Assembly: GCA_951406725.2 (NCBI GenBank)
Contig: OX597814.1
Location: 129,952,001-130,016,000 of the forward strand
Source: Octopus vulgaris
Taxonomy: Eukaryota
Direction: 5' to 3'
Length of the DNA stretch: 64,000 bases
Below are positions 1,113 through 59,647 of this stretch, one piece after another. Both the position numbers and the translations under genes were made by a program. A model generated the notes under the pieces. That model was not told the origin of the DNA, searched no databases, and was given only the letters and a program-made list of their open reading frames with translations. How positions within the stretch are numbered: the stretch's first letter is position 1; every line of letters begins with the position of its first letter.

Positions 1113-1366
<254 letters not shown>

Positions 1367-1367
<1 letters not shown>

Positions 1368-1752
1368 CACAAAATGAGACAAGAACGCAAAACATCCGGA
1401 CAGCCAGGTGATACAAAAAGGGACAACAAAACATCCAGATAGACGCTACAAAGAAAACAAGGCGGGTCATTCGAAGCCCTCTTTCCTTAGTCAAGCACCA
1501 GATAATCCTCGCAATTTTGGCTGATTATTCTTGAGATTGCTCCGATCTAGCCAGCCCCAAGGAAAAACTAAGCTAAGAGCATTAGATTCCAGGAAGAAAG
1601 CAGCGAATGTATACAAAAACAAGGACGGAAAAAACGGACAAGTTACACAAATATAAATACAATAATAAATACAGTAAAAGTGATAACAGGACATAACAAC
1701 AAGTGTCTTTCGACTAAAGACGAATCGAATTAAGCTGGCGCGCTTGGGAATG
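1367..1752 (-). mobile_element. Non-coding insertion in (TA)n, probable Penelope-like pLTR/3' fragment
   Basis: Complex sequence bounded on both sides by (TA)n; contains HHR-like strands; organisation resembles elements at 51.0 and 57.0 kb. Confidence 0.55.
1475..1540 (-). ncRNA. Permuted hammerhead-like motif, degenerate core
   Basis: Minus strand GCAAT-C-TCAAG...AGCC-AAA-ATTGC...CTTGA-CTAAGGA; stem III ATTGC/GCAAT and stem I CTTGA/TCAAG are perfect; G5 and G12 read as A. Confidence 0.4.
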
Positions 1753-4160: not shown

Positions 4161-4195
4161 TATTATTATTTTCATTTAAAAATAATATATATATA

Positions 4196-4604
4196 GGCGC
4201 AGGAGTGGCTGTGTGGTAAGTAGCTTGCTAACCAACCACATGGTTCCGGGTTCAGTCCCACTGCGTGGCATCTTGGGCAAGTGTCTTCTGCTATAGCCCC
4301 GGGCCGACCAATGCCTTGTGAGTGGATTTGGTAGACGGAAACTGAAAGAAGCCTGTCGTATATATGTATATATATATAAGTGTGTGTGTATATGTTTGTG
4401 TGTGTGTGTTTGTCCCCCTAGCATTGCTTGACAACCGATGCTGGTGTGTTTACGTCCACGTCACTTAGCGGTTCGGCAAAAGAGACCGATAGAATAAGTA
4501 CTGGGCTTACAAAGAACAAGTCCCGGGGTCGATTTTCTCGACTAAAGGCGGTGTTCCAGCATGGCCGCAGTCAAATGACTGAAACAAGTAAAAGAGTAAA
4601 AGAG
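4196..4604 (+). mobile_element. SINE family A, full length
   Basis: GGCGCAGGAGTGGCTGTGTGG start to GACTGAAACAAGTAAAAGAG end, flanked by (TA)n. Confidence 0.93.
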
Positions 4605-5689: not shown

Positions 5690-6806
5690 TATTCAATTTT
5701 ATTTTAAGATTTCTTGCTAAGAGAGAAAGAGCCGGTTTCTAACCTGGATCTCAGGTTCCTTCATTGAAATTTCAACAATATCAACAGGGTATTTTTGTAT
5801 GTATGTATATGTGCAGATTTGTATGTTTTGTTTTCTGCATGCATTCTCATGCATATAGTTGCATGTCTAGACATGCTCATATATACTTAATGGAGAAACT
5901 GTTGGAAAGTTTTACAAATTTTCACAATTCCACTGATGACTTGGATCTGTAGTCTTTAAATCAGCTTTCTCCTTTCTGGTTCTGAGGAGTCTAATTTCTC
6001 AAGTTTGGCATTTAGGCAGGGCCCAAATAATTACAGGTATGAATTTGAACTTGTAATCTGAGCAGGGTAACCGTAGATTTCTCAGTAATTCAGCTAAGGT
6101 ATTTTCTTTTACTCTGATGTACATATCTGCTGGGCAACTGATTTCTTCAGCAGTACAGAATTTCTCTTCTCTATCCCAAATAACCATGTCAGGTCTAATA
6201 TATTTACATTTTATTGAAGTTATCACTTGGACATTCCACCAGCATTCCTTTTTATTATGAGTGACTATGGCTTCTACCATACTGTGAGTTCTTATTTCTT
6301 TGTCCTTGGTATTATCCTTCCGATGGATTTCATTATACAATGTCCAAGCAACAATATCATGTTTCATCGGTAGATAATACCCTGATGACATTTTCGGACA
6401 ACTGCTTATGCTGCGGTTGATATCTTCAGTTTGAACACCACAAAGTTTGCATCGGTTATCACATTTTGCTGTTTTTCTTGCATCTCTCTCCCTTCTTTTG
6501 CATCTGGTACTTGGTTGATATTTCCTGTCCCTAGATTGCAAACGCATACCCTTCAAAATGGGAGGTAGTAATCCGGTTGTTGGTCCATGATAGATTGCTT
6601 TGATAATCAATGTTACTATGATTCCGGTGCTTTTTATTAAGATATCTATGCCTAGTCTTCTGCTGTTATGCGCTCATGTTTACACCTGATGAGATGTTGC
6701 GGTAGAATGGTACGACTTCTTTGGGCATGTACTTAGGATTTTCAGACAAGGAATGCTGCTCAATGAACTGCTTTTCAATTGTTATGTTGTTACCAACCTC
6801 ATGTAG
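5690..6806 (-). mobile_element. R4/Dong-type (RLE) non-LTR retrotransposon, 3' part
   Basis: ORF 5999-6610 has a CCHC-like knuckle (CKLC...SSC), KHD and RPDMVIWD...EISCP endonuclease motifs; frameshifted. Confidence 0.85.
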
Positions 6807-19585: not shown

Positions 19586-20438
19586 ACTGGTGAACCTAGC
19601 GTAGGTTCAGTGACTATTTAGCAACAGTATGGGCCCTCAGATATTTTGGGTTGGAATCCAGCGTGCTGGAAGATCGCTGAGTGCGAGACATCCTTTTGTT
19701 TTCGTTAAAGCATATCTCTAGAATCAGACTGAAACCCAGGTTACGCTTGTTCCAATGATCTGCTGTGACTTGGTGAGCGATTCGTCTGCGACCGTCGACC
19801 ATCGATGGCAAGATGAAGTGCTATTGATCACGCTATCCCAAAGTGTGTACGCATGTAATTGGGGATCACATGTGAACTTGTGTTCCCACTGAAATTCCGA
19901 ACATTGACTCAACACTCCAGCATTCGTGAGGGAAGAGGTGAGTTCTTTGATCGGAGCCAGTTTAATTCATTCCGGGTGAATGCCGCCGTAACAAGTACAA
20001 ATAGAATATTGTGTACCCTTAACGTAATAATTTCCATACAGAATCAGTGTGATTCGGCGTGTAACGATGCTGGACACTTAAATTATCTCCATCTGACGAG
20101 CTTCTATGCAGTTTCCGAATACCCAGTTTAATTCATGAGGCTTGATTCAACTCAAATTTATCGTAAAAGTCTCTTGCTCAAGATCGACAGGTAAACTTCT
20201 TAACCATTCGGTCATACTGCGTCTGTGTATTCATGGAGACACTAAGTTCATCAGCTGTTCACGTGATACAACAATGATTCCAGTATCTTTACCTAGTTTT
20301 ATCCTGCAATATTAGTGTTATTAACGAATAACCTGCTTTATTTTTTGTCCCCAACCCCCACCAAATGAAAGAAAATTGAATTGTGAAGGTTAAAAGTATG
20401 TTGCTATTTATTATTATTTAGCTCTGTTAAAGCAGATG

Positions 20439-22982
20439 CGTAATTGAAAAACGGACTGAGAAAGAGTTGATAATGGCTATGGGTGATTTTAACGCAAAAC
20501 TCGGAAACATTAATTTAGGATATGAAGCCATTATGGGAAAACATGGTTTAGGAAGCATGAATGCAAATGGCCAGTTATTTGCCGATTTTTGCGCAAATAA
20601 CCAGTTGGTTATTGGAGGATCTTTATTTCCGCACAAAGACCTTCACAAAGCTACATGGATATCGCCAGATCTGAAAACGCAAAATCAGATCGATCATATC
20701 TGTGTAAGCTGCAAGTTCAGGAGATCACTGTTAGATGTTAGGGTAAAAAGAGGGGCTGACGCAGCCTCCGACCACCACCTACTATTTGGCAAACTGCAAC
20801 TGAAGTTAAGGGTTTTAAAAGAGGAATGTAAGGTTCAACGAAAATACAATGTTGATTTACTAAAAAACGAAGACACCCAAATAAAATACAGAAAAGCATT
20901 ATCATGCAAATTAATGCAAGTAAAAAGGATGCAAGGCAACACAATAGAACACACTTGGTTGAAAATTAAGGATGCTTCTATTTCATTATTAGAAGAATGT
21001 CTAGGGTGTGTAAACAAAAAGAATAAGACGTGGATATCACAAGAGACACTAACAGCCATAGGAGTACGAAAAAAGTTAAAGGAAAAATTATCGGCAAGCT
21101 TAGAAGTAGAGATAAATAGATGTCAGGGAAATTACAACCAATAAAATAAGAAAGTAAAAAAAATAATTGAGAAGAGACAAGCGAAAATATTTCGAAAATT
21201 TATCAACAACAACAGAAAGTGCAGCTCAGCGCCAGAACATGAAAGAGCTGTACAAAACAACTAAATTATTATCGGAGAAGAGAGTAAGAGTAGAAATGGC
21301 AGTAAAAGGGAAGGTTGACCGGATGCTAACATCAATTCTAGAACAAAAAAAAATCGATGGAAGAAGCATTTTAAAGATTTGCTTAATAGACTACCTCCAG
21401 ACACAATAGCCAACATTGTGCCAAGAAATTTAGATCTTAACATCAACCTTGACCCACCGTCTAAGTTTGAAATAAGAAAGGCTATATAAATCCCTCAAGA
21501 ATGGGAAAGCGGGAGTTGTAGACAACATTCCAGCTGAAGCAATGAAATCAGCTATAGAAATAGCGGTAGAAATGTTTCATCCATTATTTTCTAAGATATG
21601 GCAGGAAGAAAATGTGTCTAATGATTGGAAAGAGGGACTCATCGTAAAATTGCCAAAAAAAAGGTGATTTAAGCATTTGCGGAAATTATAGAGGGATTTT
21701 GCTAATATCGACTCCCGGAAAAGTTTTTAACAGGATACTTTTAGAGCGGATGAGGACAACAGTTGACAAATTGTTGCGTAAAGAACAAGCCGGATTTAAG
21801 AAGAACCGTTCATGTGTAGATCAAATCGCCACTCTTCACATCATCTTAGAGCAAAGCGCAGAGTGGAATGCGCCGCTTTATATTAACTTGGATTTCGAAA
21901 AAGCATTTGATAGTGTAGATAGGGAAGGCTAATGGAAAATTATGCAGCACTACGGCTTACCAGACAAGTACATACCTATAATAAGAGCAACTTACCAAGG
22001 AATGTCATGCCGAGTCTTGCATGGAAAAATATACGGATAAATTCGAAGTAAAAACAGGAGTTCGACAGGGCTGTATACTTTCTCCTTTTTTTTTTATTTC
22101 TACTACTTATAGATTGGATTATGAAGGAAACTACGATTGAAAGCCAAACAGGCATTGAATGGACGGGTGCAGAAGCTCTAGAAGATCCCGTCTTTGCAGA
22201 TGGTATAGTGCTCCTTTCACAAACATATAGCCAAATGCAAAATAAAACGTCAAAATTAGAAGCAATAGCTGCCAAATTAGGATTGAAAGTCAACCGCGAC
22301 AAATCAAAAATTATGCGCGTTAATCAAGAAAACAGCGAACGTATTAAACTAGAAACCGGCGAACTAGAGGATGTAGCCGAGTTTACGTATTTAGGTAGTA
22401 AGATAACGTTTTCAGATGGTACCGACGAAGATATTAAGATGAGAATAAGTAAGGCAAGGACCGCTTTTCACCTGTTAAAAAAAAGTATGGAGCGCAAGTG
22501 TAATTTCAATAAAGAACAAAATAAAATTTTTTAACACTAACGTAAAAGCGGTGTTATTGTATGGGGCTGAGACATGGTGAATAACAGTTAAGTCAAATAA
22601 GCAAATACAATCATTCATCAACAGATGCTTGCGTAGTATACTTAAAATTAGATGGCCTGAACACATAAGCAATATGGAGCTATGGCAAAGAACAAATCAA
22701 GTTTCGATTAGGGAGCAAATATTTAAGAAAAATTGGAAGTGGATTGGTAGCACAATTAGAAAAGTCACACCAAATGTAGCGAAAAGTACTTTACAGTAGA
22801 ATCCGGATGAATATAGAAAGAAAGGTAGGCCTAAGAACTCGTGGTGTAGATCAACACAAAAGGAACTAGAGAAAGGGGGACATTCATGGAAGAGTATAAG
22901 TACAGAAGCGAAAAATTATGCGACATGGAATTCAACTATAAGTGGGCTATACTCCACGTTGGAGGGTTAAAGGCAGAAAAAA
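20439..22982 (+). mobile_element. RTE-clade LINE, 5' truncated, APE endonuclease plus RT pseudogene
   Basis: IMAMGDFNAK, QIDHI and SDHHLL (APE); NYRGI, EQAGF, LDFEKAFDSV, GVRQGC and FADG (RT); multiple frameshifts; A-rich tail; probable TSD AAG(G)CAGATG. Confidence 0.93.
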
Positions 22983-24357: not shown

Positions 24358-25071
24358 AACCAATTTCAGAAGCTCGGCAAAGGTTCGCAAACACTGCCCT
24401 TTCCTCCCGACAAGAAACACCAGAAATAAATTTGTGTCACTTTTCAGCTACATCCAACCATCTTTTCTACTCATTCCTAGAAATGTCATTATGGTAGAGT
24501 CCTTAGGCACCTCCGTAGGTTCTTAACAGAAGTAACCATCATTACAATTTCCTACTGGATTCAAAAGCTTGACCAACCGAGACTATAGACATTCTTGGTC
24601 TATTCTTAGGTCTTCTGCCGGTCGGCTCAGAATGAAGAATTCGTCTTGCGATTCTTTCCGGCGACATACTAATCACATCGGAAGCTGTAACTCGTTAGTG
24701 CGGAGAAGTAGTGGCTCGACCTGGAGAGAGTGACTCCTTTGTGTTTGAACTACGCTCCTTGTCTTGTAACGTTACACCAGAGATTCATCGGTGGAACACC
24801 ATTTCGGCCGCAGCTATTACTCAGCATTAACGACCACTTTGAACTGATTATACTTATTACTTACACGATCTGACCGTCACTAATTTCCTCATTTTTTACT
24901 ATTTGCTCAAGGACAACGTTGATGGCAATGATGTTATGTTGGTAATCAATATTGTTAGTTTCATATGTAGAGCGAATTAAAACTTCTTTGATGTTTAAAC
25001 CGGTTTTGGATTCGGCTGACTGCAGCCCTCGTGAAGCAAACAATGTTATTTTTAATGTAAAAACAGCAGCC

Positions 25072-25252
25072 ACAGGAGTGGCTGTGTGGTAAGTAACTTG
25101 CATAACAACCACATGGTTCCGGGTTCAGTCCCACTGCGTGGCACCTTGGGCAAGTGTCTTCTACTATAGCCTCGGATCGACCAAAGCTTTGTGAGTGGAT
25201 TTGGTAGACGGAAACTGAAAGAAGCCCGTCGTATATATATGTGTGTGTACAC

Positions 25253-25286
<34 letters not shown>

Positions 25287-38748: not shown

Positions 38749-39003
38749 TACACATATATATATATATACATTTCGTTTTTCGTTTTTCTTGTTTCAGCTC
38801 AGAGCTGGGCCATGCCGTTAAATACATATATATATATACATATATACGACGGGCTGCTTTCAGTTTCCGTCTACCAAATCCACTCACAAGGTTTTGGTTG
38901 GCCCGAGGCTATAGCAGAAGACACTTCCCCAAGGTGCCACGCAGTGGGACTGAACCCGGCACCATGTGGTTCGTAAGCAAGCTACTTACCACACAGCCAC
39001 TCC
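38354..39003 (-). mobile_element. SINE family A with two nested insertions in its internal microsatellite
   Basis: Tail and body 38354-38530, head 38845-39003. Confidence 0.88.
38645..38690 (-). ncRNA. Minimal type I hammerhead (A6 to G) in an 80-bp insertion
   Basis: CTGT-CTGGTGA-A-CG gcaa CG-A-GAA-ACTCAGAGT-A-ACAG. Confidence 0.55.
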
Positions 39004-39849
39004 TAAGCCTGCTAAGTTTGTCTTTTATATACTAAAACAGAATGGAGATATTTTCTGAAATAGTGTTCGGATTATGTGTTAGTATTTTAAATATATTTAG
39101 AGAATGTCATTTGCTTAGCTATTATGATAGTGAGCATTTAAATAAAATCTCACTCGTTGTACTTCCCACTATATGTGCGCGCGAGTGTGTGTGTGTCTTT
39201 GTGTCTGTGTTTGTTGCTTATTGTTTGTCAATTATCGTCCAAAACATCTTTACATTTTCACTCTTTTAACGATGATACTGTTCATCTTCTTGACGTCAAC
39301 AATGAGCTGCCGGGAATGGCGAGCGAACATTGGGGACAGTGACAGAAACAAACACGGCATAAATATGAATATACTAACAAAATGAAATACAATATACAAT
39401 ATGGAAACGGAATAAAGGCGTGATTCTCTAAGGCGACACGGATAGGTTGGTAATGCAGCAAAAGAAAGGAAAATGTTTTATAGAACTGGAAACAAATAAG
39501 GGAACAGATGGAAAAAAAAACACAGAACGAAAGATGAAAAAAAAAACGAACGGTGAAAAAAACAAAACAATGTTGAACGTAGAGAAGGAAGCGAAAGAAA
39601 CATGACTGATCGAGTCAGCGGTTAGGCGAAAATGGAAGAGATTTGAATGGTCAAGGATTACCATGGTAGTGGTAGGAGAAAGAAAAGGTGGTGGATGATA
39701 GAGAGACAGAAAGCAACAAAGTGATAGGTTGGAGAGAGAGGGAAGGAGAGAAAGAGGAAGGCAAAATTGAAAGAAAAAGAGACGGAAATAAAGTTCGCCC
39801 CCTAAATTTGCATACACGTTATTTATATGTCCATACTTTTTTTATATTT

Positions 39850-50532: not shown

Positions 50533-50946
50533 TATATAAGAAAATAGTAAAGTGTGAAAAAACGACAGAAGGCTTAAATGTTAAAAAATATATATATTTG
50601 TGTCAAAATGTCTGGAGAATATTGGAAAAAAATTTTTCCCCTTTCCTTAAAATGACATAATTTTAAAATTTTTAAAGAAATTACCAGTTTCACGTGTAGC
50701 TTTTCAAATTTCTTGTGACGTTATGTTTATATTGCATTTCCATGCAATATAAACATAACGTCACAAGAAATTTGAAAAGCTACACGCGAAACCGGTAATT
50801 TCTTTAAAAATTTTAAAATTATGTCATTTTAAGGAAAGGGGAAAAAAAATTTTTCCAATATTCTCCAGACATTTTGACACAAATATATATATTTTTTAAC
50901 ATTTAAGCCTTCTGTCGTTTTTTCACACTTTATATTTTCTTATATA
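50533..50946. repeat. Near-perfect palindrome, ~205-bp arms, ~4-nt loop, ending in (TA)n
   Basis: Centre ATTGCAT-TTCC-ATGCAAT at ~50739; only a few mismatches between arms. Confidence 0.95.
50765..50804 (+). ncRNA. Minimal type I hammerhead, U3-A8 core variant
   Basis: AAGAAAT-TTGAAAA-GC tacac GC-GAA-ACCGGT-A-ATTTCTT; 7-bp stem I. Confidence 0.6.
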
Positions 50947-50991
50947 TATATATATATATATAGATATATGCATGCATATATAAGTACATAC

Positions 50992-51625
50992 GTCACCAAC
51001 AGTAAACAACATGAAATACGAAAACAAATGAGTTCAATACGCAAACAACGAGAGAAAGAATGGAAAACAGGACAAGTGATATAAAGAACAACCCTTCATC
51101 AGTTGTCCGCTGTCTATGTACTCCTTATTTCGAGCATTGAACGACAATATGAATCTTCGAAGACAGTTGCTCCCATAAGTACCAAAATAAAATTTTGGAT
51201 TTATAGAGGACCACACTTGGGAACAAAAACAGGACAGTGGGGACATACATGGAGGGTCATTAGAACAAAACCTGGGTAAAATACCGAACACTGGAGAAAT
51301 ATTTTCTTTGAAAAGAGAAAAGGTAGAAGAGAGGGTTAGAATACATCCAGTTCTTAGGACATTTCAGAAGGAAAAGAAAGATGATCACGTGTGACAAAGA
51401 AAGATGGACAATGGTCATGCATGGGTAACGAGAGAGGGAAATGGGAAAGGGAGAGGGAAAAGGGAAAGGGAGAGAGAAAAGGGAAAGGGAGAGGGACAGA
51501 GACAGATAGAAAACGGTGAAGAGGAGAAAAGGTGAGGGAGAAAACAGTATAAAGTTGCGTGAAAAAGATTATGATACACTTACTTGGAAGTGGATGCGTG
51601 GCGTTCAATCAAATAATAATATGAA
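50992..51625 (-). mobile_element. PLE-like non-coding 3' region/pLTR between TA-rich tracts
   Basis: Organisation resembles 57003-57290; contains HHR strands. Confidence 0.55.
51088..51154 (-). ncRNA. Permuted hammerhead-like motif, intact core
   Basis: TTCAT-A-TTGTCGTT caat GCTC-GAA-ATAAG gagtacatagac AGCGGACAA-CTGATGA-A-GGGT. Confidence 0.5.
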
Positions 51626-51627
51626 TA

Positions 51628-51662
<35 letters not shown>

Positions 51663-56957: not shown

Positions 56958-57002
<45 letters not shown>

Positions 57003-57005
<3 letters not shown>

Positions 57006-57290
57006 TAATAAATAAATAAAACATATGCATATATACATACATATATGTACGTACCTACCTCTACATGTATATATACATGCATATATGGGTACAGGACATC
57101 AAAAAAACGTCGAATACATTGAGAAACGAAAACATAAACACAAAACCAAGGAAATGGACATTTTTTTAAAACAACGAAAAAATAGAGTACAGGACAAACA
57201 AAACAAGGAAAATTCCCCTTCTTCAGTCGCCTTAATTTCATCTACTCCACGTTTCAAAGGTCAAGGCGATACATGAATTCAATGAAAAAA
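57003..57290 (-). mobile_element. PLE-like pLTR fragment in (TA)n
   Basis: Complex ~290 bp flanked by (TA)n on both sides; contains HHR strands. Confidence 0.55.
57215..57277 (-). ncRNA. Permuted hammerhead-like motif, intact core, best copy
   Basis: TTCATGT-A-TCGCCTTGA-CCTTT-GAA-ACGTGGA-gtagatgaaa-TTAAGGCGA-CTGAAGA-AGGGG; stem I 9 bp, II 5 bp, III 7 bp including wobbles. Confidence 0.55.
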
Positions 57291-59261: not shown

Positions 59262-59647
59262 GTCTGACGAAGTGACACTCTCATGTCTACAACCACAAAC
59301 AAATTTTTGCATAAACTGGCGTTGCAAGCTGAGTTAGTACAGAAACGTTTGTAGGGTATCACTAAAGATGTGTTAAAGAATTTCTTTTTCTTTTTATCTG
59401 GGCTATATATGAGTGCAAGTAAGTACATAATTGTATATATATATATGTATATATATGTATATATATATATATATACAATTATGTACTTACTTGCACTCAT
59501 ATATAGCCCAGATAAAAAGAAAAAGAAATTCTTTAACACATCTTTAGTGATACCCTACAAACGTTTCTGTACTAACTCAGCTTGCAACGCCAGTTTATGC
59601 AAAACCTTGTTTGTGGTTGTAGACATGAGAATGTCACTTCGTCAGAC
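59262..59647. repeat. Palindrome with ~172-bp arms and a (TA)n centre
   Basis: ORF track gives the same peptide on both strands; arms begin GTCTGACGAAGTGAC. Confidence 0.95.

Follow-up and report, generated by a model that had tools for sequence, protein, structure and literature searches.

The window, by which we mean the whole stretch of Octopus vulgaris DNA analysed here (64,000 nt), carries on its minus strand copies of three repeat families, F1, F2 and F3, at 57.2, 51.1 and 1.5 kb, each with a hammerhead-like motif (Table 1), and all three copies are damaged, as judged from family alignments. The F1 copy, flanked on both sides by TA runs, starts at 57288 as a result of a 5' truncation 19 nt before the predicted cut; it has lost a strand that we call W, and its C11.1 is changed to U. 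The F3 copy is mutated at two core positions, G12A (1518) and G5A (1488), and is predicted to be dead. The same window also holds a near-perfect inverted repeat (59262-59647; arms of 193 nt, 97% complementary, no spacer), a second long palindromic stretch that adjoins the F2 copy (50620-50870, centre near 50741), open frames that by eye resemble fragments of a LINE-type endonuclease/reverse transcriptase (20431-22531 and 6002-6673), and an abundant short interspersed repeat in both orientations (1770-2050, 2728-2898, 4195-4405, 25065-25274 and 38824-39013).

Table 1. Repeat copies on the minus strand of the window and the parts of their hammerhead-like motifs.
Feature	Position	Strand	Details	Basis
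3' remnant of family F1 (Penelope-like element without ORF)	56998-57288	-	95.5% over 291 nt	blastn of F1 unit against window
P3ext 5' strand (helix extending stem III)	57281-57287	-	W would adjoin on the 5' side, deleted here	
Block X, F1 copy	57263-57275	-	stem III' CAUGU; U16.1 = 57271; A17 = 57270; predicted scissile bond 57270/57269; stem I' 57269-57263	sequence, three-block descriptor, covariation (parts: sequence)
Block Y, F1 copy	57248-57260	-	stem II' 57260-57256; G12-A13-A14 57255-57253; stem III 57252-57248	sequence, family alignment
AGUA half of bulged-G-like internal loop and P3ext 3' strand	57236-57247	-	P3ext 3' strand 57241-57236	sequence, alignment
Block Z, F1 copy	57220-57233	-	stem I strand 57233-57227; core CUGAAGA 57226-57220	sequence, descriptor
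G-rich tail after A9	57215-57219	-	taken as stem II in the first-pass annotation	W-versus-tail tests
Older F2 copy	50975-51653	-	ribozyme 51172-51096, stem III mismatch; W GAGCA 51172-51168; H17 51148; core 51102-51096	
F3 copy (kink-turn class)	1345-1752	-	ribozyme 1556-1484; W GGCUG 1556-1552	

The first-pass annotation had read positions 57277-57215 as a hammerhead whose three blocks follow the order XYZ, which is none of the circular permutations known as types I, II and III. The blocks are there as it described them, the core is complete, and the stems have 9, 5 and 7 pairs, of which 8, 3 and 5 are Watson-Crick; a three-block descriptor, applied to both strands of the 64-kb window with the blocks in each of the six orders, gave a single match, XYZ at this place. 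The sites for which the same order had been claimed at 51.1 and 1.5 kb do belong to related families, though both copies are damaged. Over the family motif itself, the orders of types I to III (CGS, GSC and SCG) give no match, two ZYX matches with a Watson-Crick stem II being accounted for by a palindrome at one locus (L045), and the F1 unit map and the family descriptor run are without a canonical downstream GAAA strand. The topology has been described: Eckert 2023 (PMC10085705) treats hammerheads as blocks S, G and C in six possible orders, XYZ is its type SGC, and both SGC and CSG were shown there to cleave. In that scheme block C (stem I-CUGANGA-stem II) is assumed to be uninterruptible, and a helix bridging stems I and II is required in the SGC ribozymes. 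The SGC RNAs came from metatranscriptomes, and none was assigned there to the genome of a known organism.

What did not survive is the annotated stem II, AGGGG:CCUUU, which is peculiar to the mutated window copy (II' reads CCUUC in family F1 and CCUUU here) and is not a conserved helix. From 150 unique copies with an exact core, block X was located through stems I and III only, 107 copies passing, and 11 registers upstream and 11 downstream were then searched for a perfect helix of five Watson-Crick pairs with II'. Such a helix is formed with the upstream strand W in 76 of the 107 copies and with the bases downstream of A9 in none. Since the first search range for W (17-23 nt) was too narrow for class A (29/107) and was widened to 18-28 nt after looking, the blind test of W is the held-out set of 78 copies only, taken in genome order, of which 52 retain X: here the W helix is present in 35/52 and the downstream helix in 0/52. 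Strand W lies about 20-28 nt upstream of U16.1 and is complementary to II' in eight types of pairing (GAAGG:CCUUC, GGCUG:CAGCC, GAGCA:UGCUC, GACAC:GUGUC and four rarer ones). When partners were swapped among 17 II' classes in 3000 shuffles, the score of W was reached 0 times and that of the downstream strand 2933 times. In a MAFFT alignment of 18 sequences of the kink-turn class, the W helix is 80% paired and the downstream helix 23.6%, which is below shuffles.

Two classes of the motif, which we call A and K, differ in what follows A9. In class K, the largest, these bases cannot pair with II' (a mean of 1.4 of 5 pairs for the CAGCC class). In class A, to which the F1 copy of the window belongs, AGG after A9 is kept in 34 of 39 held-out copies, the tail never gives a perfect helix with II', and the alternative stem II of the SGC kind has four pairs and is rich in wobbles (54 matches with fewer than four Watson-Crick pairs, one with four or more). 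This AGG may be left over from an SGC ancestor, serve as a fallback stem II or make a tertiary contact. For F3, two readings of the bases after CUGANGA, one in which they make up stem II and one in which they enlarge position 7, were ruled out once W was found. We conclude that the conserved stem II is very probably built by the upstream strand W, which leaves the backbone open from A9 to G10.1, and that W-X-Y-Z is the real order, because the conserved helix uses a strand that is absent from the window copy. The original proposal, a three-block SGC pseudoknot with the G-rich tail as stem II, and with W as an accessory or anti-misfolding strand, draws on the fit of the window copy to SGC, on the retention of AGG in class A, with an extra A at position 9.1 as in other Penelope hammerheads (PMC4209133), and on the demonstrated cleavage of type SGC; given that the downstream helix is never perfect in either set, that its pairing score falls under the partner-swapped controls and that class K could not form it at all, we consider this proposal quite improbable.

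The layout of the motif is 5'-W-(0-4 nt)-P3ext-loop-III'-H17-I'-(1-6 nt)-II'-GAA-III-loop-P3ext-(0-2 nt)-I-CUGANGA-3'. The backbone exits the core after A9 and re-enters at G10.1, W bringing both G10.1 and the 5' strand of stem II. Blocks X and Y pair into a long stem III hairpin that shows covariation; the cut site, I' and II' lie in its loop, and the hairpin runs through an internal loop into the helix P3ext. The far end of P3ext is joined 5' to W and 3' to Z (stem I and CUGANGA), the shorter of the two gaps being 0-2 nt. The internal loop distinguishes the classes. In class A it has an AGUA/GAA signature, and in class K there is a 3-nt bulge with tandem G-A pairs between stem III and P3ext; we take these to be a bulged-G-like and a kink-turn-like loop, respectively, the names being given from established knowledge. 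In the class K alignment G57, A58 and T59 are invariant. A class-A subfamily (L072, L074, L084 and L086) has an extra A between A14 and A15.1, which is seen in 3 of the 107 scored copies and in more of the listed pattern matches, and the same family also occurs without it.

The hammerhead core (C3UGANGA9, G12AAA and U16.1-H17) is seen in the window copy as well as in copies collected purely by DNA similarity; in the pattern searches CUGANGA, CGAAA and the UH rule were imposed, and C11.1 was fixed by the pattern. The triplets at the cleavage site among the 107 copies are GUA (51), AUC (23), AUA (18) and GUC (15). There are 40 types in which the three core helices are intact, and among these stems I, II and III have each changed on both sides, with little stem sequence shared between families, while U16.1-A15.1 is found in 40/40, H17 is always A or C, and G10.1 is supplied by W in 40/40; in class K there is no G at 10.1 after A9. 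The covariation that had been proposed as a check is thus found for all three core helices, with W as the partner in stem II. P3ext scores at least 5.5 of 6 in 66/107 copies and, in the alignment of the 18 kink-turn-class sequences, has changes on both sides at 5 of 7 pairs. In that alignment 76% of the cells of the four-helix structure are paired, changes on both sides occur at 16 of its 23 pairs, and the covariation score of the whole structure was reached by 0 of 500 shuffles. Related sequences inflate such counts, and the weight is placed on what changes from one family to another; for class A, the MAFFT alignment misregisters W and was left out of the pair counts, and of the two alignments A1 and A2, whose representatives were picked by eye, A2 shifts the Naiad-type rows and undercounts. 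Nested folding and cofolding were set aside, as pseudoknots cannot be represented in them.

The motif is also frequent. The F1 stretch is a high-copy repeat with 3037 first-look candidates (40 full-length matches listed are 94-100% identical), and F2 and F3 have 4520 and 4914 first-look candidates. Genome-wide, exact patterns for the Y to Z core return 12,200 matches for class K and 6,216 plus 376 for class A, compared with 66, 9 and 0 for the reversed control patterns in the same genome, or about 18,800 versus 75 in total, so that the expected enrichment over controls is borne out. These matches sit in Penelope-like elements without ORFs and in old Naiad-type copies. A four-strand descriptor finds 55 W-X-Y-Z matches in 125 loci (412 kb) chosen by DNA similarity, and five shuffles of these loci give no match; the 64-kb window and 30 shuffles of it likewise give none. 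From the held-out fraction of 35/78, which comes wholly from the start of one contig (C1), copies with all four strands would number, very roughly, 8,000. An Rfam scan gave no hammerhead among 150 matches listed of 340 (E<=10), only look-alikes in microsatellites. It could be argued that we are dealing with chance complementarity multiplied by the copying of one repeat, as copies within a family are not independent and the search patterns imposed part of the core. However, the eight W:II' types and the 40 combinations of helix types changed on both sides, the lack of any match in shuffles, and the recurrence of this layout, judged by eye, in published Naiads from other phyla leave this explanation with a vanishingly small probability, and we regard it as already refuted by the covariation between families.

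As to the host elements, the F1 unit is about 810 nt long and without any ORF, let alone one for a reverse transcriptase with a GIY-YIG domain, and is hence non-autonomous. Its copies (60 loci, L001-L030 and L101-L130) form partial head-to-tail tandems, include inverted truncated copies, have a tail of about 40 nt and lie in TA targets, an anatomy given for Penelope-like elements by Craig et al., 2021 (PMC8557442, Fig. 2 legend). The annotated context of TA-embedded elements with pseudo-LTRs is in accord with this Penelope-like, TA-targeting anatomy, inside which the non-circular hammerhead order is found. In F1, F2 and F5 a splice-donor-like AAGUAA directly follows the start of the unit, and a CACGUG box lies deeper inside (L102:1580-1600, L094 and L047), possibly the retained intron and the promoter of Penelope-like elements. 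The upstream flank of L120 holds an inverted copy of a further class-A family (W GAAGG, different stems) that adjoins an F1 unit, and more families must therefore exist than were sampled.

One locus with a link to a reverse transcriptase is L247, where a match to RVT_1 (E 1.3e-5) and a W-form motif share a strand, the former ending about 900 nt upstream of the latter; no endonuclease follows the reverse transcriptase there. The Naiad arrangement has GIY-YIG at the N-terminus and the reverse transcriptase at the C-terminus; in L247 the reverse transcriptase is C-terminal and the 5' part is truncated. In the family of L247, a reverse transcriptase match lies upstream on the same strand in at least 5 of the 43 matches listed, as judged by coordinates only. 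An autonomous parent of F1-F3 was searched for and not found: the Naiad-type reverse transcriptase copies are decayed (at most 83% identical to the query over the full length, many with stops, again by coordinates only), and the young element has a type I hammerhead. This young autonomous Penelope-like family (L219 minus strand; L189-L221) has an open frame of 842 residues, with many copies 99% identical, 19,436 first-look candidates and a 3' UTR of more than 1.5 kb. By eye the frame has a reverse transcriptase followed by a C-terminal GIY-YIG motif, and Pfam gives only a weak unrelated match; the minimal hammerhead in its pseudo-LTR is of type I, helix II being long and helix III loop-less. 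As a parent of F1 the element was rejected, its matches to the collected loci being short and of low complexity.

A further connection is with the Naiad elements (Craig et al., 2021; PMC8557442), for which the original description reports no canonical hammerhead and gives no fold, with 18 entries flagged HHR_core or HHR_half_core. Naiads share with F1 the (TA)n targets, partial tandems, inverted truncated copies and the tail; they differ in that F1-F3 have no ORF, and the link between them is the shared ribozyme architecture. By eye, the published 3' ends of Naiad_Obim and Naiad_Ovul match the family of L222-L247 and carry the W form. In the Naiad supplement, of which 58 of 62 CUGAUGA places and ten each of 43, 23 and 25 places for the other N7 variants were read, the W form fits by eye at ten places, one with a stem I of only 2 bp, and type CSG at six, three of them at record ends beside nematode entries; among the same places, neither form could be fitted to several other 3'-end cores. 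The six CSG hammerheads are clean (beside Naiad_Hcon, Naiad-2_Nbra, Naiad-3_Nbra and at three other places), several having a long helix that bridges stems I and II. Eckert 2023 (PMC10085705) had only two CSG sequences, both metagenomic, compared with these six Naiad consensuses read by eye.

Does the W-X-Y-Z RNA cut? With the anchor placed about 135 nt downstream of the predicted cut, 50 class-A copies give 38 5' ends within the range +135 to -200, and 14 of these lie at +2 to +12, where 1.7 are expected (p 4e-10, or 1e-8 after scanning), compared with 0/38 at -1 to -59. In a core-anchored sample of both classes, which shares some loci with the former, 21 of 78 ends fall within the 1-16 nt on the 5' side of G12, compared with six in the next 20 nt. 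A 3'-anchored sample of class K shows no significant pile-up (3/27, p 0.15). The class-A ends begin at +2 rather than +1, and the pile-up suggests reverse transcription of a cut template with the loss of a few bases at the junction, the alternative being stalling at the fold.

That alternative can be taken further, to a conserved fold that does not cleave at all, a hammerhead-derived signal for protein binding or reverse transcription at which the polymerase stalls. The ends are off the exact scissile bond, and a stable RNA fold could stall a reverse transcriptase; kink-turn and bulged-G loops are, moreover, common protein-binding sites, and a break next to A9 has no published test as far as our literature searches reached. 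Such a signal appears unlikely, however, as all the catalytic positions are kept across families that have little stem sequence in common, and as the ends stop abruptly 5' of the predicted bond, with none in 59 nt, whereas stalling should start at the 3' edge of the fold. Judging by sequence evidence of these two kinds, the W-X-Y-Z RNA probably cleaves in vivo.

How the four strands would come together is a separate question. We infer that P3ext corresponds to the bridging helix between stems I and II of SGC and CSG ribozymes. A straight hairpin could not bring W and Z to its own loop, because the other end of P3ext is continuous with stem III of the same copy. By rough arithmetic, a straight rod leaves 62-70 Å to span and the linkers reach 13-20 Å, so that all four helices would be most easily formed by docking of two copies; an equally rough estimate for the kink-turn geometry gives a gap of 28-34 Å between helix axes, which might be closed by a monomer, or else the monomer might fold with P3ext open. 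In the mechanism that we propose, the base (W and Z) of one hairpin in a tandem (pseudo-LTR) transcript would dock on the X/Y loop of another, the docked copies would cut after H17 by the usual G12/G8 chemistry, and the cut would yield the 5' end of the template for reverse transcription. The two-copy assembly suggested in the first-pass annotation is thus plausible in this arrangement, but not as the X1-Z1-Y2 dimer that it specified, which is unfit because X and Y of one copy are locked by the long covarying stem III hairpin. There is a precedent in the Penelope minimal hammerheads, whose cleavage requires dimers or trimers (PMC4209133). Of 29 strand matches in 30 loci with full F1 units, only 4 have a second copy's X, Y and Z upstream; docking partners could come from read-through or from separate transcripts.

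The same four strands might be assembled within one copy, either with the internal loop bending P3ext beside stems I and II, or with P3ext opening, as an off-switch would. The kink-turn-like loop of class K sits exactly between stem III and P3ext, most genomic units have a single complete ribozyme, and SGC ribozymes, with a link of 0 nt between distant helices, cleave during transcription (PMC10085705). Against this, the covariation of P3ext is as strong as that of the core helices, an indication that the active fold includes it, and one Naiad 3' end in the supplement (place 37) has, by eye, a nearly continuous stem III/P3ext of 15 bp with 2-nt linkers. The loop type of class A keeps the helices roughly straight, leaving 67-70 Å versus a linker reach of 13-20 Å. 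A monomer is possible, above all in class K, and as a general account we hold the one-copy assembly to be rather doubtful. If cleavage is taken as given, we lean towards two copies per active site, with one copy a lesser but serious contender. On balance, the preferred reading, for which we have a fair degree of confidence, is of a four-strand hammerhead of Penelope-like retroelements that likely cuts the transcript, most likely with two copies per active site.

How does this form relate to the known hammerheads? The closest is type SGC (PMC10085705), one of the non-circular permutations together with CSG and GCS, with which it shares the order of site, GAAA and CUGANGA, the short I'-II' linker, the bridging helix and the core nucleotides, W-X-Y-Z being a circular permutation of that class. 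Both the S-G-C order and a bridging helix (P3ext, after W and before the stem I strand) are found here, and the differences are that block C, which in type SGC is uninterrupted, with the stem II strand after CUGANGA at an insert of 0-2 nt, is cut here between A9 and G10.1, and that both strands of the bridging helix run on into stem III. The descriptors of Eckert 2023 required CUGAUGAG or CUGAUGAUG, and the W-form elements match neither CUGAUGAG nor CUGAUGAUG.

The type I minimal hammerheads of Penelope elements likewise lie in the pseudo-LTR near the 3' end, keep G10.1-C11.1, and are proposed to act across copies in tandem and in precursor RNA processing (Cervera and de la Pena, 2014; PMC4209133); however, they have a palindromic, loop-less helix III that is swapped between copies, whereas helix III of the W form is a long intramolecular hairpin, and the swapped strands would be W and Z. 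The highly active PK hammerhead (Zhan et al., 2024; PMC11300833) also takes most of helix II from a remote upstream strand, but its A9 and G10.1 are linked, its G10.1-C11.1 is local and its order is otherwise conventional; neither this link nor the local pair, nor a loop II pseudoknot with helix IV, is seen in the W form. A further parallel is presented by the non-LTR retrozymes (bioRxiv 10.64898/2026.07.22.740005), Penelope-derived tandem units that are free of ORFs and carry a hammerhead; these are defined by type I hammerheads, and the units described here have the W form instead of a type I hammerhead per tandem unit. Searches of an open-access library turned up no description of the W form, and passages of Perreault 2011 show none.

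In conclusion, the XYZ order alone is not new, and what lies outside the six published permutations is the W-X-Y-Z connectivity, which is strongly supported by covariation and for whose activity the 5' ends give indirect support. A more ambitious view, which we put forward tentatively, sees here a seventh natural connectivity, open between A9 and G10.1, that is an obligate two-copy enzyme, a hairpin whose head (the X/Y loop) is the substrate and whose base (W and Z) is the enzyme, and which would cut only another copy; this would be the missing ribozyme of the Naiads in several phyla (CSG in nematode Naiads), with thousands of intact copies in this genome and with its cuts fossilised in the 5' ends of insertions.

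The conserved break inside the catalytic block extends the hammerhead permutation scheme past the six orders thought possible, and it moves the non-circular permutations from anonymous metatranscriptome contigs to high-copy retroelements of animals. The W form also offers an answer to a puzzle of the Naiad paper, that of core nucleotides present and no fold found, and accounts, in a way that can be tested, for the failure of Rfam and of standard descriptors to detect such motifs. As in vivo evidence on the role of Penelope hammerheads, the accumulation of insertion 5' ends behind the predicted cut would be a rarity, and a ribozyme assembled head to base from two copies would, if true, be a natural sensor of tandem copies and a compact scaffold for cleavage in trans.
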